Below, in pieces: positions 47,315 through 58,594 of a stretch of 64,000 bases of DNA. Position numbers and translations under genes: made by a program. The notes under the pieces are model-generated. The model searched no databases. It saw only the letters and a program-made list of their open reading frames with translations, and was not told where the DNA came from. The stretch's first letter is position 1, and the number at the start of each line of letters is the position of its first letter. The DNA comes from Savitreella phatthalungensis (lineage: Eukaryota), in assembly GCA_051599415.1 (NCBI GenBank), contig AP039703.1, forward strand, positions 124,001 to 188,000, written 5' to 3'.

Positions 47315-47815
47315 GGCTAACTATCACGTAGAGTCTCGTCACCTGATCCTCAACGTGAGTCTGTCACAGAGTAAAATGTCATCGGTGAGAAAAGCTTGAC
47401 TATATCAGAAGTAGTCCGATCAAAGGTGAAGTCAATATGCAATTGAGAAGCTCGAATGAAGATCAGATCAGGCGATGTCGAATAGACGAGCTAGTGATTT
47501 GTGAAGGATGATGAGCGAGTGAACAGTATGTAGAGTACAATGTGGTGTAGTGCTGATGAGGTGATGTTAAAGATTGGTAGGTGATCCCCGCAAATCAATC
47601 AATCGATCACTGGGATTCGATCAAATTACAGTACACACATGATTCACGTGAAAACAAATCATCATCATCATCATCATCATCCAAGAAGACACTCAAGATC
47701 AAGTCTAAGACACTTCCCGCCTCATCCTTCTCTCCAGCAACTGTATACCTCTAGAGGAGAGTGTATCCATCGGCCTGCCAGTCTGTCATCAGGTCAAAGC
47801 TTAGGTCACCCTGCC

Positions 47816-49624
47816 ATGGCCGAACCTGCAGCTGTTGTGCAGTCCTCAGTGGCTGACAAGGATGCCCCTGTAGAGGTCATTGTACCAGGCAAGGAGCCAT
47901 TACAGTGGCTCCGGAAGATCACGGTCATCTCACTCGTCATTGTCTGTTACATATACTTCAGATGGCTACCATCTGCACATCTCCCACGGATCATCACTGC
48001 ACTCGGCCTCATCTGGCTGTCCGTGAGCTATAGACTCTACCTACCTTGGTTCGGCAGCAGTCCCGAAGACCCCATCATCACCTCCCTGCGAGCTTCCGAG
48101 ATGTGGGTTGTCCCTTTCCTCCTGATGCTCACATTCGATGCGACCATGGTGCCGTGGGTGTTTGATGACTTCAGAGATCTCGTCATCTGCAAGCTGGGTC
48201 ACGTCGGTGAGGATCATGCCCGCCTAACACTACGCGCTCCAGGCATGACCGTTGCCGAGCTCTGCTATGGAAATGTCAAGGACCTCCCTGAAAGCATGGT
48301 CTGCAAGAATTTGACACTCCCAGGGCTCGATGCAACCGACACCGACTTCGTCTTCCAGACAAGCATTTCTGATCTCGAACCAGACAATTCCTACCTGTAT
48401 TCCGTCAGGGGCTGGGAAAATGTCGAGGAGCAGAGCACAGCCTCCAACGAGACCATTGCAAGCATTCTCGGTCTGCAGGTTTTCAAGACCGCTCCAAAGC
48501 GTGGCGAGTCAAGCCAGTACACCTTCCTCGCGAGCTCCTGCATCCTCCCTGGATTCCCTTACAATCCAATCAAGCGCAATCGTATCAATGGCTTTGAGTC
48601 TCTCTACAATGTCCACCTGGATAATCGAGAGGCTCCATCTTTCATGCTGTTCTTGGGAGAGTAAGTTATCAACGTTGAAGCCGCGAAACCCCTTTCATGA
48701 GCACCCTTTACTGACCAGCAAGTTTTATCTACTACGATCTACCACACTTCCCAGAACTTTCCCTTGACAACTACTACCAGAAGTACCGCACCATCTACGC
48801 ATCAGAGTCCTTCAGGCAAGTCTATTGGCACTTGCCCATCGTGCACACGTACGACGACCACGATGGTACGCTCCACCCGATCAGATCTACCGAATCCCAT
48901 GCTAATCTTTCAAGTGGTCAACAATTATGACAGTGGCGAAGATACAGAGCGATACCAGGTCGCTCACTCGGCATTCGAGGCATACCATGGTGGAAGCAAT
49001 CCGCCGGCTGTTCGTCCGGGCGCCACTTACTATACCTTCAGCCGGGGCGCTGTCGACTACTTCCTTCTCGACACCCGGCGGTATCGGTCACCAAACACAG
49101 CCGTAGATGATGCCCATAAGACGATGCTCGGCCGACAGCAGCTTTCCGACCTGCTCTCTTGGCTGGGCGATTACGACGGAGGAAACACGAAATTCAAGGT
49201 GATTGTGTCAAGCGTGCCGTTCACGCGCAACTGGGGCGGCGTCGATGGACATCTCGATACCTGGGGAGGCTTCCTCACAGAGCGCGCCATCATCCTTGAG
49301 GCCGTGCGGAAGGCTGGTCGAGACGTGATCTGTATCTCTGGCGACCGACACGAATTCGCAGCTACCCTGGTCGGCGAGCCAGGCACGCCAAATGTACTCG
49401 ACCTCGCCATCGGCCCCCTCAACCAATTCTACCTCCCCTTCGCAACCTACAGCGGCGACAAGTACCCAGAGACAGACCGCAAGCTGAGCTACATTCCATC
49501 AGGCAATGAGAAATGGGGTTTCTTCTCAGTCGACACTGCAGCTTCACCACCCACCATCGACTTCCAGCTCAAAGTGTACGGCGAGTCTGTCTGGAACTAC
49601 ACCATCGTGGGTCAAGACGCATAG
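47816..49624 (+). CDS. Membrane-anchored PhoD-like alkaline phosphatase; exons 47816-48660, 48723-48865, 48915-49624
   Basis: N-terminal TM helices and SSC. Splicing gives FMLFLGD|FIYYD and YDDHD|VVNNYD, followed by FLLDTRRYR, TMLG..Q, SSVPF, DTW.GF..ER and SGDRH. Confidence 0.9.
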
Positions 49625-49680: not shown

Positions 49681-50472
49681 TCAGGACATGGTCGTTGACG
49701 ACTTCGCTGACTTCTTTGTACTTTCTCGCTCGCGCTCGCGCCTGTCGGAGACTGCTTCGTACGCCCACAATGCAGCCTGTTCAGCCAGACCGCCTGGCAG
49801 GAAGCGTAAGTTCTGCTGAGCATTCCTCGTCTGTCGTTTGGAAGGCGACCAATCGACAGGAATCAGTCCAGCAGATCCAGAACCAGGTCTTCCTGCAGAA
49901 CCAGGTCTCATGGCAGCATCCCCGCCATCCACCCGGCGGATCTTGCGCAACAACGAACTAGGTGTCATAAGATCCGATGGCGAAGTCTGCCTCCGCAAGG
50001 GCGAATCTGTAGCAGCCCGTAGCAAGCGCAAACCCAGTGACGTTTCGCCTGTACTATGATCCTCCTTCACACTCTCCGGCTCGTCCACATCTTCGGAGAC
50101 ATCGAATGGGTTATGCTCGATCCCAGCAGCGACTTTCAAAGTTTGGAGGTCATCATCATCGTCGTCATCGACAGCGTCGATGTCTCTGAAATCGGGCGTG
50201 GCGTGGGAGGTGCGTGCAGACCCAGGTACCACGAAACGCGGTGGCTTTCTGATACTATGAGACCTGCCGGTGACTGCTGCGGGCGCTGTGCTTGGCGCCT
50301 TGGGAGGAATAATGAAGCGCGGCGTCAGCATGCTAGGCCGTCCGCCACTCCCACCATTGTCCCTCACACCTGACCGCCTTGGCGTACCAGCAGACACTCC
50401 ATCGTCATCCACAATGGCCTCATCCACACGACGTTTCTTCGGTGGAGGAATCACAAATCGAGGTGGTACCAT
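49681..50472 (-). CDS. Hypothetical disordered protein with repeated PRF(V/I)(I/V)P motifs and an NLS (PKKRR)
   Basis: 263-aa ATG-initiated ORF; C-terminal DWSP...RFLPGGLA motif; family not securely recognised. Confidence 0.6.
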   Translation of the reverse strand: MVPPRFVIPPPKKRRVDEAIVDDDGVSAGTPRRSGVRDNGGSGGRPSMLTPRFIIPPKAPSTAPAAVTGRSHSIRKPPRFVVPGSARTSHATPDFRDIDAVDDDDDDDLQTLKVAAGIEHNPFDVSEDVDEPESVKEDHSTGETSLGLRLLRAATDSPLRRQTSPSDLMTPSSLLRKIRRVDGGDAAMRPGSAGRPGSGSAGLIPVDWSPSKRQTRNAQQNLRFLPGGLAEQAALWAYEAVSDRRERERESTKKSAKSSTTMS

Positions 50473-50903
50473 CACCGCTCATACCACATCACAACGCAGC
50501 GCATGAGATACCCACACGCCGTCGAGGTAGCCTGTCCAGGAAGATGTGTGCGTGTGAGAATGAGCATGCAATGTGGAGTTGATCAATGACAAGTGTCTGC
50601 TAGACTTTACCCAATTTGATCGGTTGATCGTATCAGGGCAAAAACATGCACACAGCACATCCTTTTACAAAAAGTCATAAAAGCTACTACACTCAAAGTC
50701 ACCATCTACCACGTCACTTACTGCTCAGGACGTCAAAAATTCTGGCTCACAAAGTGCTAAGGATGCGCTAGTAGCTAGTGGTTGCTGACTGTTGACCGCT
50801 GACTCCAGCTTTGGACAGTCTACAGCCAAGTAAGGATACCCCTGGCTGAGCTTCATCTCCTTGATCTGCCGGTGGAGGCTTCGTAACTTCAGATCTGCCC
50901 ATC

Positions 50904-53900
50904 ATGGGCAAGCAGATGGTCATTGACCATGTGCCAAAGCGCATCAAGGCGCTCAAGTTTGGTATCATGTCCCCACAGGAACTTGTTCGACAGGGTGTGA
51001 CTGAAGTCACAACGAGGGAGCTATATGAGCTCGGGGGGCCTGAGCGTAAGCCTGTCGCTCATGGTGCACTCGACCGCAGAATGGGCACGTCGAGTAAAGA
51101 TGCGTTGTGCGAGACTTGCGGAGAACGTGTGACAGATTGTGTAGGCCACTTTGGCCATGTCAAGCTCGCTTTGCCTGCCTTTCACATCGGGTACTTCAAG
51201 CACATCCTCAACACGCTCTCGCAGATATGCAAGGAGTGCTCTCGCGTCCTCCTTGACGAGGAGATGCGCAGATCGATGCTCAGAGAACTACGGAAACCCA
51301 TCGACAACCTCAAGCGACAATCCCTCCACAAGCGCATCCTCGACCACTGCAAGAAGATGCGGCACTGTCCCTTCTGCCACGCACCTCAAGGCGTCGTCAA
51401 GAAAGCAGGACCACTCAAAATCATCCACGACAAGTACAGGTACGCAGGTCGGAAAGGCGAAGACGCCAAGCGCGAATTCGATAACAGTTTCGTCAAGGCC
51501 GTCCAGGCATCACAGGACATGCGCAGCCATCTGAACAAAGCAATGGATGATCTTAACCCACTTCGAGTCCTTAACCTCTTCCAGCGAATCAGCATGTCAG
51601 ACTGCGAATTGCTCGGCATCGATCCTGAAGAAGGCCGTCCGGAGATGCTGCTCTGGCAGTACATCCCAGCTCCACCGGTCTGTATCCGGCCCACAGTGAC
51701 ACAGGACGGAGGTGTGACAGAGGACGATATCACGGCGAAGCTGACCGAGATCGTCTTCAACAACGCCCTCATCAAGGCCGCACTCGACAAAGGTACACCA
51801 ATCGCCACCCTCATGGAGCAATGGGACTACCTTCAGCTTTCTATCGCCATGTACATCAACAGCGATATGCCAGGCGTGCCCATCAGTCAGGCGCAGAAAC
51901 CCATGCGAGGTTTCTGTCAACGTCTTAAAGGCAAGCAAGGCCGCTTTCGTGGAAATCTATCTGGCAAGCGTGTCGACTTCTCAGGACGTACAGTCATCGG
52001 ACCTGATCCGAACTTGGCCATCAACCAGGTCGGCGTGCCTGAGCGCGTAGCCAAGACCTTGACGTTTCCAGAGAAGGTGACAGCTCACAATATGGCAGAG
52101 CTTCGTGAGCGTATCCTCAACGGCCCAGATAAGCATCCAGGTGCAAATTTCGTTCGCAGCAGTAACGGCTTCTCACGCTACCTCAAATTTGCAGACCGTC
52201 AGCGCGTCGCTGACACCCTCAAGATCGGCGACATCGTCGACCGTCACATCCGCGATGGCGACTGCATCCTCTTCAATCGTCAGCCCTCTCTCCACAAGCT
52301 CAGCATCATGTGCCATTTTGCCAAGATCAGACCCTGGCGGACCTTGCGGCTGAACGAGTGCGCCTGCGGTCCATATGGTGCCGATTTTGACGGCGACGAA
52401 ATGAATCTGCACGTTCCGCAGACCGAGGAAGCTCGAACAGAGGCTCAAGTGCTGATGGGGGTGAAAGACAACCTTGTTACTCCCAAGAACGGCGAGCCTG
52501 TGATCGCTGCTATCCAGGACTTCATCACTGCCAGTTTCCTGCTCTCGCAGAAGGACGCATTCTTCGACCGCAAGACATTCGTCCAGACTGTCAGCATGAT
52601 GGCAGATGCCGACCTCAAATTCGATTTGCCTCCGCCAGTCATCGTCAAACCTGTAGCGTTGTGGACAGGCAAGCAGATCTTCTCTCTCCTGATGAAGCCA
52701 AATCGGGATTCCAATGTCCTCGTCAACCTCGAAGCTAAGTGTAGATCGTTCTCCGGCGGAAAGTATGCGGCGGAGCCCGACATGTGCCCAAACGACGGGT
52801 ACCTCGTCATCCAGGGATCTCAGGTCATGTGCGGTGTGATGGACAAGTCGACCGTCGGGGACGGCAAGAAGAACTCTCTGTTCTATGTAATCCTGCGTGA
52901 CTACGGCTCAAAGGAAGCGATCGCAGCCATGAGCAGACTAGCAAAGCTGTGTGCTCGTCATCTCGGCAACCAGGGTTTCAGTCTTGGTATCAGCGATGTC
53001 CAAGCGTCCGCGCCCCTGCGCGCTCAGAAGGATCGCCTCGTCGACGAGGCAGAAGCGCAGTGTGAGGAGCTGATCCGGCAGTATCGCAAAGGCCGATTGC
53101 CCCTCCAGCCGGGCTGCAACGCCGAACAGACACTCGAAGCCAAGATCTCCGGCGTCCTGTCTCGTGTCCGCGACGGCTGTGGCGAAATCTGTATGGACGA
53201 CCTGCCGAAGACAAACGCACCAATCATCATGGCCACCTGCGGTTCCAAGGGATCCAAAATCAACGTCTCCCAAATGGTCTCGTGCGTCGGCCAGCAAATC
53301 ATCTCTGGATTTCGCGTCCCTGACGGCTTCCAAGACCGCTCACTCCCGCACTTTGCGAAAAATTCAAAAGAGCCAGGCGCCAAGGGCTTCGTCAGGAACT
53401 CCTTCTATACAGGTCTCTCACCACCAGAATTCCTCTTCCACGCAATCTCAGGACGCGAAGGTCTCGTCGACACAGCCGTCAAGACGGCAGAGACCGGATA
53501 CATGTCTCGTCGTTTGATGAAATCTCTGGAGGATCTGTCAGTCAAGTACGACGCAACTGTTCGGAATGCATCGTCGGGAATTGTTCAATTTGTGTATGGA
53601 GACGACGGGCTCGATCCTACCTTCCTCGAAGGTGATGGCGTGCCCGTCGAATTTGTCAGGACCTGGTCACATTGCCGGAATGTGTCTGGACTCGCCGGTC
53701 GTATCCTGACGCCAGAAGAAATGATGGACAGAGCACGAGAAGCCATGTCTCAAGCGAAGTGGGTAAGAGGTTGCACGGAAGACTTCCGTGAAACAGTCGC
53801 CTCCTTCCTTCAACGTCTCGCGACCCGGCGCGCAGAACTCCTCGCAAGGTTCCCAGAAGGCGACGAAGCAGGTCGCACGAACGCGGACAACATCCTCGCC

Positions 53901-55088
53901 ATCACCAACGCCCAGCTGGACGTCTTCCTGCAGACCTGCCTACACAAGTACATCACGGCGAAAGTAGAGCCAGGGACAGCAGTGGGCGCTGTTGGTGCCC
54001 AGTCCATCGGTGAACCAGGTACACAGATGACCCTGAAGACCTTCCACTTTGCAGGCGTGGCGTCGATGAACATCACGCTCGGCGTCCCACGCATCAAGGA
54101 GATCATCAACGCGGCAAAATCAATCTCTACACCCATCATCACCTGCAAGCTCGTCAATGAAGTGGACGAGATCTCAGCTCGGGTGGTGAAAGGTCGTGTG
54201 GAAGTGACAAGATTGGAGGACATCTGCTCGTACATCTCGGAGATCTGGTCTGCGCAATCGGTCAGTGTCGAAGTCAGAGTCGACTGGGACAACGTCAGGA
54301 AGCTCCAGCTCGACCTGAAGATGAGTGACATCCAGGAAGCGATCATGCGAGACTCTCGACTGAAACTAGCGCCAGGGACGAGCTTTGTCGACCGTGGGGA
54401 GACAATCCGAATTCGTGTCCGGATGGCAACAGAGAAGGACACCAAAGAACATATTGAGATGCTGTACAAGGTCCAGTGGTTGAAGCGTGCTCTCCCAAAA
54501 GTGGTCGTCGCAGGTGTCACCACCACGTCGCGTGCCGTCATCAATAAGACAGACACGAATGCAAACACGCTCCTGGTCGAAGGCTATGGTCTGAAGGAAG
54601 TCATGGCGATCGATGGTGTCGTCGGCACAGACACGTACACGAACCACATCATCGAGATGCGTCAAGTACTCGGTATCGAAGCCGCCCGAGCGTCCATCAT
54701 CAAGGAAGTATCAACCGTGATGCGATCTCACGGCATGAACGTCGATCCTCGCCACATCCTCCTCCTCGGAGACGTCATGACGTACAAGGGTGAAATCCTC
54801 GGCATCACCAGGTTCGGCATCGCCAAGATGAAAGACTCAGTCCTCATGCTCGCATCGTTCGAGAAGACAACAGATCACCTGTTCGACGCAGCTGCAAGGC
54901 TAGCCCAAGATGCAATCGAGGGGGTCTCAGAGTGTATCATCCTAGGCGTTCCAGCACCGATCGGCACAGGCGCTTTCAAGGTCATCAGGCTATCCGAGCA
55001 ATTCCTGGACAAACCAAGGAAGAAGCCAGTGTTTGATGACCCAGAGTTACATGTACCGCTGGCAAGTATCGCCGTAGGAGCAGCATAG
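50904..55088 (+). CDS. RPC1: RNA polymerase III largest subunit Rpc1 (C160)
   Basis: C.GHFGH, GFCQRLKGKQGRFRGNLSGKRVDFS, NRQPSLH, DFDGD, bridge helix TAVKTAETGYMSRRLMK, trigger loop EPGTQMTLKTFHFAG and the Pol III-type SVLMLASFEKTTDHLF; no CTD. Confidence 0.98.
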   Translation: MGKQMVIDHVPKRIKALKFGIMSPQELVRQGVTEVTTRELYELGGPERKPVAHGALDRRMGTSSKDALCETCGERVTDCVGHFGHVKLALPAFHIGYFKHILNTLSQICKECSRVLLDEEMRRSMLRELRKPIDNLKRQSLHKRILDHCKKMRHCPFCHAPQGVVKKAGPLKIIHDKYRYAGRKGEDAKREFDNSFVKAVQASQDMRSHLNKAMDDLNPLRVLNLFQRISMSDCELLGIDPEEGRPEMLLWQYIPAPPVCIRPTVTQDGGVTEDDITAKLTEIVFNNALIKAALDKGTPIATLMEQWDYLQLSIAMYINSDMPGVPISQAQKPMRGFCQRLKGKQGRFRGNLSGKRVDFSGRTVIGPDPNLAINQVGVPERVAKTLTFPEKVTAHNMAELRERILNGPDKHPGANFVRSSNGFSRYLKFADRQRVADTLKIGDIVDRHIRDGDCILFNRQPSLHKLSIMCHFAKIRPWRTLRLNECACGPYGADFDGDEMNLHVPQTEEARTEAQVLMGVKDNLVTPKNGEPVIAAIQDFITASFLLSQKDAFFDRKTFVQTVSMMADADLKFDLPPPVIVKPVALWTGKQIFSLLMKPNRDSNVLVNLEAKCRSFSGGKYAAEPDMCPNDGYLVIQGSQVMCGVMDKSTVGDGKKNSLFYVILRDYGSKEAIAAMSRLAKLCARHLGNQGFSLGISDVQASAPLRAQKDRLVDEAEAQCEELIRQYRKGRLPLQPGCNAEQTLEAKISGVLSRVRDGCGEICMDDLPKTNAPIIMATCGSKGSKINVSQMVSCVGQQIISGFRVPDGFQDRSLPHFAKNSKEPGAKGFVRNSFYTGLSPPEFLFHAISGREGLVDTAVKTAETGYMSRRLMKSLEDLSVKYDATVRNASSGIVQFVYGDDGLDPTFLEGDGVPVEFVRTWSHCRNVSGLAGRILTPEEMMDRAREAMSQAKWVRGCTEDFRETVASFLQRLATRRAELLARFPEGDEAGRTNADNILAITNAQLDVFLQTCLHKYITAKVEPGTAVGAVGAQSIGEPGTQMTLKTFHFAGVASMNITLGVPRIKEIINAAKSISTPIITCKLVNEVDEISARVVKGRVEVTRLEDICSYISEIWSAQSVSVEVRVDWDNVRKLQLDLKMSDIQEAIMRDSRLKLAPGTSFVDRGETIRIRVRMATEKDTKEHIEMLYKVQWLKRALPKVVVAGVTTTSRAVINKTDTNANTLLVEGYGLKEVMAIDGVVGTDTYTNHIIEMRQVLGIEAARASIIKEVSTVMRSHGMNVDPRHILLLGDVMTYKGEILGITRFGIAKMKDSVLMLASFEKTTDHLFDAAARLAQDAIEGVSECIILGVPAPIGTGAFKVIRLSEQFLDKPRKKPVFDDPELHVPLASIAVGAA

Positions 55089-55721: not shown

Positions 55722-56937
55722 ATGACAGACGCATCTTCATCCATCCAAAACGCTCACCAGCAGCAAGCATCCACCACGCTCGCTTCAGCCTCAGGTAACG
55801 ACTCATCTGCACCTGCACCAACCCAACCATCCCCAATCGATGACTCTCATCGTGTCTATATCGCCGGACTGGCCCCAGACACGACCGAGGAGCAGCTCAA
55901 GACCACCTTCTCCTCTGTCGGTACTGTGTAAGTTTCACCTACCATTCCGCTTATCACCCTTGTGCCATGTACCTGACGCTGACTTTCCCTCTAGCATCTC
56001 CGTGTCCGTCCCGAAGAGACGCAACTTTAGGAACCGCCGTAATGCAGGCAAGGCAGAGGGTCAACAGCAGCAGCAGCAGCAAACGCCACAGACTGTCATT
56101 GCCTTTGTTGGTTATGCTACCGAATCGGAGGCCAACAACGCCGTCTCTTCCCTCAACGGTACTGAGGTTGCCGGCCACGAGATTACTGTAGCTATGGCCA
56201 AACCCTTGTCCGAGCGCAAGCCTCGGCCTCTTCGCCAAAAGAAGGTCCGTCAATCCTCCCTCGAATCATCCCTCACTGTGCATCGAAGACTGACACACTA
56301 TACACAGACTGCTCACGAGACACAGGCTGCCGGCGAAGGCCAGGAGACTGCCCGTGACGTGAATCTACCAGGTCAAGCTGACGGTGTCGAAGGTGGAGCT
56401 GCCACGAAGAAATCGTCGAAGCGTGGCCCGCGTGGCAAGAAGACGAACGGCGTGACCAGTGGTGAGAATGTCACGCCAGCAGGGACAGTACCAGACGCAG
56501 GCACAGAAGCAGCAGCTGCAGGATCAGAGACGGCATCGACAAACACGCGTCGTCAACCTCGCGAGCCAAAGCAGCGTGGTCCGCCGGCAGATGGAAAACC
56601 TTCTGAGAAGACGCTGTTCGTGGCAGGCCTGTCGTACGACACCACAGACGAAGAGCTCAAATCCCTGTTTGCAGACTACAACCCACAGACAGCCCATGTC
56701 GCTCTCCGTCCCATCCCAATCTCCATGGTCAAGCGTCTCCAGGCAAAGGGTGAGCGTCGCAAGGGTCGTGGTTTTGGATTCGTGACTTTCCAGGACGTTG
56801 AATCTCAGCAAGCCGCACTCAACGCTCTCAACGGCAAGAAGCTAGACAACGGCAACCGTGAACTCGTCGTCAAGGTTGCCATCGATGCTCCGAAGCCCGC
56901 GTCGACTGAGTCGCCAGCTACCGCCGAGGCTGCCTAG
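55722..56937 (+). CDS. Two-RRM RNA/ssDNA-binding protein (S. pombe Tcg1-like); exons 55722-55927, 55995-56244, 56308-56937
   Basis: RRM1 (RVYIAGL...IAFVGY) is joined across a 67-nt intron (GTAAGT...GCTGAC...TAG). RRM2 reads TLFVAGLSY...ALRPIP...RKGRGFGFVTF...VKVAID. A second, 63-nt intron is at 56245-56307. Confidence 0.85.
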
Positions 56938-57119: not shown

Positions 57120-58271
57120 TCATGAGAACACAGAGTCGCTTGCGTCATCGTCCATATCGTTGCGATCAAACCGTTGACCACGACCATCTCCTAAACCTCG
57201 TCTGTTGACCCTGCCTCGGCCACTGCCCCCGAATCCTGAGATGTCCGGCATCCGTGAACCTCGATCTCCTCCGGAAGGTCCAGCCGCAGTAGCGAGCTTG
57301 CCGTTTGCCTCGAGCACGCCCGCAAATGCCTGTGTCGTGCCTACCATAGCAACAACCCGATCTAGTTCCTTCACGAGCGTGGCGTCTCCGTTTGCCGTTT
57401 CGATGATGGAATCCTTACCACCTGCGGCACCACTGGCGGCAATATCTGCCTGCAGCGATGATAGCAAGGTCACAATGTGCTGAGCTCTTGCAACTACGGA
57501 TGCGTCATACGCGATTGAGCCGTCCTGAATGCCCCGCAGGTACGATGTGATTGTACCGAGGCGTTCCCCTAGACTGCGGACAGCTCCACGTTGAATGGAC
57601 AATGTGTCAACAGCCGAAGCAGCCAGAGCATCAAGTGAGTCCGTTGTAGTCTCATTACCGTCTGTCATCACAGCATCCCCACCAGCCAGCGCTCGAGACA
57701 CAAACGACGACACAGACCCGCTTCCACCACGAGATACGTCCTCTACCGCGATCCGTTCACCCTCGCCAGCACCAACCACCACTTTCAACTCATGCGCATC
57801 TCCAGCGATGTTAGCGAGCTCGTACATCTTCAGCGGCAGGTCGTCCCCTGCATCTTTCAGACTCTCCGGCTCGAATAGCGCCAACACGAGTGGTGTTCGT
57901 CTTCCTGAATTCAGACCATCCGAGAAAAGCGTTTCCAGTACAACTCGCTGGATCTCGACATGATGCTGGCTGGGCATCTGCCCAATAGCGTACAACCCGA
58001 CGACATCGACGTGCTCCAGGACCTCCTTGTACTGCAGCACCCGTTCCTTCATAAACCGCGCATCAGGCAAGCCGTCCGAAGTGACCAACATCTCAATCGT
58101 CGTCTCCACAACCACATCTCCACCAGTCACCGAACCCAGCAGCAACCCAACCACACGAGATACACCCGTCCCACGAGCACTCGCACGAGTGTAGTAGTCA
58201 CTCATGTTCAACAGCGCCAGCGGGTGCAGTGTCACCTCCGACATCCTTGTATCTTCTACAGCGTCGACCAT
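57120..58271 (-). CDS. CSN6: COP9 signalosome subunit 6 (MPN- domain)
   Basis: VTLHPLALLNMSDYYTR, VVGLLLG, QYKEV, GEGERIAV and AVRSL..RL..I..YL; no JAMM motif. Confidence 0.8.
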   Translation of the reverse strand: MVDAVEDTRMSEVTLHPLALLNMSDYYTRASARGTGVSRVVGLLLGSVTGGDVVVETTIEMLVTSDGLPDARFMKERVLQYKEVLEHVDVVGLYAIGQMPSQHHVEIQRVVLETLFSDGLNSGRRTPLVLALFEPESLKDAGDDLPLKMYELANIAGDAHELKVVVGAGEGERIAVEDVSRGGSGSVSSFVSRALAGGDAVMTDGNETTTDSLDALAASAVDTLSIQRGAVRSLGERLGTITSYLRGIQDGSIAYDASVVARAQHIVTLLSSLQADIAASGAAGGKDSIIETANGDATLVKELDRVVAMVGTTQAFAGVLEANGKLATAAGPSGGDRGSRMPDISGFGGSGRGRVNRRGLGDGRGQRFDRNDMDDDASDSVFS

Positions 58272-58594
58272 GAGTCCAGCTAGAAAGAACTACTACAATA
58301 TCAGTGACCTGCTCCCAACTCTCGGCCTTGACCTTGTCTTTGTACTCTGTTGTCCTATACCGTGCTGTCGCGTACACTGAGAAGAAGCCTCAGGTGTGCA
58401 TCATTGACGTAAATCCGTACGGCTCCACCAAAATGACAAAAGTCAGAAGACACACTTCATCAGTCACGCCTGCAACGAGCACATCGACTACAACACACAT
58501 TCGTCCTTTCAAGGTGCCTGGAATAGCTATTGACGTGTGTGTGGGGAGAGAGTGGGAGGGTCTCTTCTGATAGGCGCGCGTGCGCGCTCCGACC

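Follow-up and report, generated by a model that had tools for sequence, protein, structure and literature searches.

The window analysed here, a 64-kb stretch of contig AP039703.1 from Savitreella phatthalungensis (positions 124,001 to 188,000), carries RPC1, the gene for the largest subunit of RNA polymerase III (Pol III), on the + strand at 50904..55088. Within this gene, the codon GGT at 52377..52379 (+) places a glycine, Gly492, at a near-invariant asparagine position of the active centre, and this substitution is the subject of our study. RPC1 is intronless, with 1394 codons and a stop in a single open frame; the stop-to-stop frame spans 50865-55088, the ATG lies at 50904, and the 1394-residue translation is identical to gene call P0002. 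A Pfam search placed Rpb1 domains 1-5 (PF04997, PF00623, PF04983, PF05000 and PF04998) in canonical order over residues 25-1325 of the window's protein (entry P0001), with E-values from 5.6e-92 to 2.3e-30, all well past the cut-offs. The top solved relative was yeast C160 (5fj8_A) with 1723.9 bits, and human RPC1 was the next listed with 1510.9 bits. Other polymerase classes scored lower (S. pombe Rpb1 854.8, S. cerevisiae Rpb1 789.6 and Rpa190 498.5 bits), so by bit score the protein is nearer to Rpc1 than to Rpb1, Rpa1 or archaeal Rpo1, supporting its membership of the Rpc1 family.

We further placed the protein in a FastTree phylogeny of 240 Rpc1 sequences, which were selected from 376 proteins by a length of 1200-1800 residues, a Cys-type Rpc1 motif and a single DFDGDE; Pol II-type (RNA polymerase II) sequences and those of other lengths were dropped, and two motif columns were deleted before tree building. 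The window's protein nests in fungal Rpc1, beside Taphrina and among Taphrinomycotina, which bears out the affiliation assumed in the original prediction. Outside Taphrinales, 302 columns are conserved at 93% or more; the protein keeps 299 of these and departs at three, namely E446D (in the window's protein alone), N492G and P701A (both order-wide). With only 3 of 302 conserved columns changed, we infer that this Rpc1 is under strong purifying selection. Judged by its sequence, the Gly492 protein is thus a genuine, orthologous and otherwise orthodox Rpc1. Ala701 (53004-53006), the second order-wide change, is an observation in its own right: the residue is Ala in 11 of 11 Taphrinales versus Pro in 215 of 229 non-Taphrinales.

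In the active centre, we found the glycine in frame on the + strand, in the context tgc ggt cca tat GGT gcc gat ttt gac ggc gac gaa atg, encoding C-G-P-Y-G-A-D-F-D-G-D-E-M. Ungapped alignments, one of them spanning 50 residues, put it opposite C160 N509, human POLR3A N497 and Rpb1 N479, so that the Asn preceding ADFDGD, part of what has been called the "invariant YNADFDGD", is absent and Gly492 stands instead. The resulting GADFDGD metal-A motif (52377..52397, +) retains all three catalytic residues, D494, D496 and D498, in alignment with yeast and human. By the genetic code, AAY to GGT requires two base changes, as the original prediction had pointed out. Upstream, that 50-residue match (query 1-50 on S. 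cerevisiae Rpb1 440-489) aligned the NRQPSLH segment (52275..52295, +) and identified Arg459 with Rpb1 R446, the main reader of the ribose 2'-hydroxyl (2'-OH). Downstream, a 58-residue ungapped alignment (query 2-59 to Rpb1 1058-1115 and C160 1083-1141) covered the nucleotide-interacting stretch of the trigger loop, TQMTLKTFHFAG (54021..54056, +), whose Q, L, K and H correspond to Rpb1 1078, 1081, 1082 and 1085; yeast C160 is identical to the window's protein over this stretch. The Lys stands where Pol II has N1082, and the Pol II of K. phaffii likewise has Asn there, which confirms a Pol III-type trigger loop. The expectation that NRQPSLH and the trigger loop would be intact was therefore correct, as judged by alignment to R446, Q1078, L1081 and H1085. 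Two further glycines lie nearby. Gly489 (GGT, 52368..52370, +) occupies the position of yeast C160 T506, a common polymorphic site by alignment, and Gly366 replaces the more usual Ser in RTVIGPD, which is present at 51987..52007 (+) as originally described.

The glycine proved to be shared by the whole order. All 10 other Taphrinales Rpc1 proteins that we retrieved, from separate assemblies and including the GenBank protein CCG83690.1 of Taphrina deformans, carry CGPYGADFDGD. With residues 380-700 as the query, the search returned the window's own protein, followed by seven relatives 80-82% identical and then by varied fungi at 70% or less; the seven relatives carry CGPYGADFDGD without exception (7/7), and T. 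deformans CCG83690.1 shares a 90% cluster, and the same motif, with one of them. Since ten relatives from separate assemblies have the same residue, the codon is not a sequencing error, in agreement with the earlier argument from the two base changes. In the tree, the window's protein is sister to ten Taphrina-type sequences in a clade with support of 1.0, of which 11/11 are Gly. Its place within this all-Gly clade indicates that the organism is a member of Taphrinales and that the glycine is older than its split from Taphrina. The original prediction had raised the question whether the change runs through Taphrinomycotina; it is shared throughout Taphrinales, and Saitoella, Neolecta and Pneumocystis are Asn-type. 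At the level of reads, one Logan contig of run X1 matches 51800-53000 with 0 differences at a word depth of 42.7, although X1 may be the source sample and hence not independent, and no second X1 contig was found across the region at 80% likeness or more. What runs X3, X4 and X6 yielded were short and mostly diverged pieces that stem from other organisms or from different polymerase genes. The pieces that start at or just past the Gly codon (from 52379) are all short and diverged, and they are uninformative about it.

The idea of a specialised paralogue, put forward in the original prediction and taken here as one of the type of the plant enzymes Pol IV and Pol V (RNA polymerases IV and V), finds no support in these data: only 3 of 302 conserved columns are changed, the placement is orthologous and follows the species tree, and the protein lies inside a Taphrinales clade that is entirely Gly.

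Beyond Taphrinales, the Gly motif recurs in distant Rpc1 proteins. A first search returned 121 proteins (including P0001 and P0002, both from the window) with 14 GADFDGD and 107 NADFDGD motif instances, and five of the 14 GADFDGD instances were basidiomycete (Phellopilus, Sanghuangporus, Coniferiporia and two from Ceratobasidium). The best 150 representatives at 50% identity gave 144 N, 3 G, 1 NSDFDGD, 1 unrelated second site and 4 motif-less fragments. A 40-residue motif-centred search added Dacryopinax, Starmerella magnoliae and four relatives, one of which clusters with Starmerella bombicola ALK02057.1. Across the 240 Rpc1 sequences of the tree, the motif column holds N in 215, G in 25 and no other residue; the sample was enriched for Gly by the motif-centred search, and 25/240 is not a natural frequency. 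Parsimony on this tree requires at least seven N/G changes, with at least five independent fungal origins of Gly. The Gly clades are Taphrinales (11 sequences), Starmerella (5), Hymenochaetaceae (3, whose sister Schizopora is Asn), Ceratobasidium (2), Dacryopinax (1), a non-fungal pair (2) and a non-fungal single sequence (1); each of the five multi-sequence clades has support of 1.0, and the other two are single sequences. Because 25 of 240 Rpc1 proteins carry Gly, the Asn before ADFDGD is not strictly defining for Rpc1. Two Rpc1-like proteins (P0015 and P0250) show another rare departure in the same loop, NSDFDGD, in which Ser replaces the Ala after the Asn.

We also scanned prokaryote genomes and viral contigs with a 30-letter degenerate DNA pattern for Y-G-A-D-F-D-G-D-(E/Q)-M. 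The Gly pattern was found in 83 prokaryote species genomes, 65 with archaeal-type and 18 with bacterial-type flanks, mostly DPANN archaea and Patescibacteria of the candidate phyla radiation (CPR) by record labels, and in 31 giant-virus contigs representing 15 distinct contexts. All 114 of 114 matches were in frame, with the frame open over the fetched locus and in an RNA polymerase context. Four further scans covered all other codons at the Asn position in the viral contigs, while the prokaryote genomes were scanned for the Gly pattern. In the viral contigs, the non-Asn residues at the site were G in 31, A in 5, D in 2 and M in 1, with no others: the residues Ser, Thr, Ile, His, Tyr and Lys, each one step from Asn, were not found there, Asp was rare, and the two-step Gly dominated. 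The Ala (five loci), Asp (two) and Met (one) variants, at loci L116-L122 and L115, all lie in giant-virus RNA polymerase genes; at the two Asp loci and the Met locus the triad is followed by Gln-Met, and the flanking sequence has diverged strongly. Among the prokaryote records, seven (L012, L022, L037, L051, L052, L049 and L069) are labelled Gammaproteobacteria or Nanoarchaeia and have a bacterial-type beta' context nearly identical to that of Woykebacteria/Patescibacteria, an apparent mismatch between label and sequence that may be binning or labelling noise.

As read across these alignments, GADFDGD is a recurrent and genuine departure from what the literature treats as an invariant motif. 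The original prediction named as a refutation that Gly should prove common among fungal Rpc1 proteins, and this has come about in part: the variant recurs, with at least five fungal origins and further occurrences in archaea, bacteria and giant viruses, but it is a minority state. The strong form of the idea, a one-of-a-kind Pol III of new specificity, finds no support.

The other residues that contact the nucleotide are kept. The R446-equivalent Arg is present in 25/25 Gly-type and 215/215 Asn-type Rpc1, the trigger-loop Lys in 25/25 and 199/215, respectively, and the equivalents of Q1078, L1081 and H1085 are retained in 25/25 Gly-type proteins. We compared each of the seven Gly-clade consensuses with the conserved consensus of its Asn-type neighbours. 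The sole column changed in 7/7 Gly clades is N->G itself; the next is changed in 4/7 and is a variable site, and 22 Rpc1 columns are changed in three Gly clades. No co-varying second column was found within Rpc1 across the seven clades. The proposal that RTVIGPD compensates for the Gly motif had to be abandoned, as RTVIGPD also occurs in 35 Asn-type sequences, those of Saitoella, Neolecta and Pneumocystis among them, and is missing from 6/7 Gly clades; it is ancestral in Taphrinomycotina and unlinked to the Gly motif. Gly489 was likewise rejected as a compensator. Among 357 retrieved proteins, an upstream Gly accompanies a motif Asn in 85 motif instances and an upstream Thr accompanies a motif Gly in 7, showing that the Gly motif can do without a Gly489-type residue, which also occurs apart from it.

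The genes around RPC1 give the impression of normal housekeeping genes, unconnected with the Gly variant. Pfam identified a PhoD-like phosphatase domain at 48701-49624 (+), an RRM protein at 55726-56937 (+) and an MPN/JAB plus MitMem_reg protein at 57120-58289 (-), and gave no match in the frames 47585-48664 (+) and 49681-50478 (-). In the 64-kb window of this compact fungal genome, ARAGORN found no tRNA genes and no Rfam family reached its gathering score.

To our knowledge, the role of this Asn in ribose recognition has been probed by engineered Ser or Asp mutants only. Published mutants at the site lose less than 5-fold of their sugar selectivity, elongate slowly and, in Pol III, terminate more. 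Papers describe the Asn as "universally conserved" or "invariant" (PMC7862312, PMC4982682, PMC2605557), and list beta' Arg425, Asn458 and Gln929 of the bacterial enzyme as the three universally conserved side chains by the 2'-OH (PMC7862312). In E. coli, sugar selectivity at binding drops 4-fold with beta' N458S but is not reduced at incorporation, R425 being the main determinant (PMC7862312), and N458D is "very slow" (PMC2034486). In the pre-translocated state, the RNA 3' nucleotide has both its hydroxyls bound by beta' Asn458; with N458D, the complex withstands the drive of tagetitoxin towards that state (PMC3424550). Yeast Rpb1 N479S is viable, has the worst in vitro rate defect of the tested set and is genetically interdependent with Q1078 and N1082 (PMC3325174). 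In Pol III itself, S. pombe Rpc1 N491D, within "the invariant YNADFDGD", is a gain-of-function change with slow growth and more termination at 4T (Rijal and Maraia 2016, PMC4982682). Plant Pol IV (NRPD1) and Pol V (NRPE1) lack the Asn and take deoxyribonucleoside triphosphates (dNTPs) more readily, the NRPD1 residue at this position being Arg (PMC5737373, PMC2605557, PMC11343019). A full-text search for "GADFDGD" returned no paper, although alignments printed as figures would escape it, and searches of the literature for N509Y and T506I gave nothing relevant. Tagetitoxin is reportedly in contact with this Asn, a point that we do not use as evidence. The same applies to the residues altered in the S. 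cerevisiae laboratory mutant rpc160-112 (Dieci et al. 1995), reportedly T506 and N509, both of which correspond to Gly in the window's protein; the replacements in that mutant were reportedly bulky and not Gly.

Taken together, we consider it likely that the window encodes the ordinary, orthologous and working Pol III of a Taphrinales species, in which an ancestral Asn->Gly change has been kept because it is tolerated, being either close to neutral or mildly compensated, and confers no new activity. Gly would have taken the place of the Asn of NADFDGD already in the ancestor shared by all Taphrinales (the Taphrina/Protomyces group) and been retained since. The enzyme would thereby be short of one carboxamide, which in other polymerases hydrogen-bonds the ribose hydroxyls of the incoming nucleoside triphosphate (NTP) and, in the pre-translocated state, those of the RNA 3' nucleotide. 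Since the three catalytic Asp residues, the 2'-OH-reading Arg and the trigger-loop Gln, Leu and His are all kept, catalysis and the choice of ribonucleoside triphosphates (rNTPs) should be largely preserved. Selectivity for rNTPs over dNTPs is probably modestly reduced, the pre-translocated state is expected to be less stable, and the kinetics of elongation, translocation or termination are possibly altered. What favours a tolerated variant is that multisubunit polymerases have repeatedly accepted a residue with no side chain at this site. As to why it should be Gly, the vacated space might be occupied by water, which may explain Gly over Ser or Asp; another possibility, a hypothesis of our own, is that the backbone here adopts a conformation readily accessible to Asn and Gly alone, which may explain the recurrence of Gly.

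Several points weigh against this interpretation. That the Gly-type enzymes work is deduced from their sequences. A single X1 contig covers the region at 80% likeness or more, but a second, Asn-type RPC1 may exist elsewhere in the genome. Charged or bulky changes at the site are clearly harmful (N491D, PMC4982682; N458D, PMC2034486), so that "tolerated" need not mean neutral. Moreover, the convergence on a two-step Gly with no one-step intermediates could equally reflect positive selection, and the tree sample was enriched for Gly variants, so that its frequencies are not population estimates.

The possibility of positive selection leads to the best surviving alternative, in which loss of the side chain was selected because it shifts translocation, pausing or termination by Pol III, for example by changing the number of T residues needed for termination, and the Gly lineages are convergent adaptations. 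The gain-of-function phenotype of S. pombe Rpc1 N491D, with more termination at a 4T tract (PMC4982682), fits such tuning, as do the at least seven origins that all arrived at Gly despite the two base changes, in an Rpc1 column free of one-step residues. Yet no trait is evidently common to leaf parasites, flower yeasts, wood rotters, DPANN archaea, CPR bacteria and giant viruses, many Gly lineages are fast-evolving with reduced genomes, for which relaxed constraint is the simpler account, and no co-varying Rpc1 column accompanies the change. We regard adaptive tuning as unlikely. A broader combination is less likely still: that N->G was convergently selected, alters pausing or termination, brings tagetitoxin-type insensitivity as well, and that Gly and the rarer Ala are universally the sole viable alternatives to Asn. 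Were this to hold, the altered pausing or termination would stem from the lost pre-translocated contact with the RNA 3' ribose, the inhibitors would be products of leaf bacteria living alongside Taphrinales, and the Asn side chain would be dispensable for ribose selection.

Resistance to an inhibitor, taken by itself, appears more improbable again. Here the Gly would lower the sensitivity of Pol III to active-centre inhibitors such as tagetitoxin, a product of the leaf-dwelling Pseudomonas syringae pv. tagetis that inhibits eukaryotic Pol III by stabilising the pre-translocated state. The convergence on Gly is compatible with this reading, Taphrinales are leaf parasites, which counts in its favour, and one partial match to the stretch comes from a sample labelled phyllosphere metagenome, with a share of 0.14 made up of short, mostly diverged pieces. 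Tagetitoxin is indeed described as a plant-pathogen product that inhibits chloroplast and bacterial polymerases and also eukaryotic Pol III (PMC3814378). Against this, the case is indirect throughout, Gly is found as well in wood-decay basidiomycetes, groundwater archaea and giant viruses, outside any leaf ecology, and the evidence from N458D concerns a charged residue and not Gly. Finally, it is extremely improbable that the Gly is a mistake of sequencing or assembly, or that the gene is a pseudogene or a divergent, specialised paralogue accompanying a canonical RPC1. Although a further RPC1 copy may exist and the read support consists of contigs, the best possibly from the source sample, the same Gly occurs in 10 other Taphrinales sequences from separate assemblies that include a GenBank protein, the 1394-codon frame is unbroken, 299/302 conserved columns are kept, and the gene branches as the species does, in a clade devoid of Asn-type sequences. 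Only one contig of X1 spans the region at 80% likeness or more.

For the window itself, a tolerated Gly is of modest import, being a trait of the lineage in a housekeeping gene that is normal in other respects. Its wider value lies in the presumably essential, wild-type Gly enzymes of culturable fungi such as Taphrina deformans, Starmerella bombicola and Sanghuangporus, and in those of DPANN archaea, CPR bacteria and giant viruses, which are natural experiments on the share of the Asn in rNTP/dNTP choice, translocation and Pol III termination. It also warns annotators and modellers that NADFDGD is no absolute signature.

Among known systems, S. pombe Rpc1 N491D is a close parallel to the window's Rpc1, affecting the same residue of the same enzyme within Taphrinomycotina, and it provides the only direct Pol III data considered here. 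The mutant demonstrates that cells stay alive with another residue in place of the Asn. Unlike the window's protein, it is a laboratory mutant with a charged Asp, whereas the Gly of the window is the fixed wild type of an order and comes with no sign of general decay of the protein. Rpb1 N479S and beta' N458S/D also alter the homologous Asn but are engineered Ser or Asp changes in Pol II or the bacterial enzyme, none of them Gly or a natural wild type. For the Asn in these enzymes, contact with the ribose 2'/3'-OH, a modest influence on selectivity, a strong one on rate and a part in the pre-translocated state have been published. Plant Pol IV and Pol V resemble the window's Pol III in being natural nuclear polymerases devoid of the Asn; in contrast to it, they are described as paralogues derived from Pol II that are not essential and are altered at many further active-site positions, while the window's Pol III is otherwise canonical. 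An identical Y-G-ADFDGD is found in the Gly-type Rpc1 of T. deformans, S. bombicola, S. magnoliae, Sanghuangporus, Phellopilus, Coniferiporia, Ceratobasidium and Dacryopinax, and in the polymerases of DPANN archaea, CPR bacteria and giant viruses. With the exception of T. deformans, all of these have origins independent of that of the window, and the residue three positions upstream of the Gly varies among them (Gly, Thr, Ala and others).

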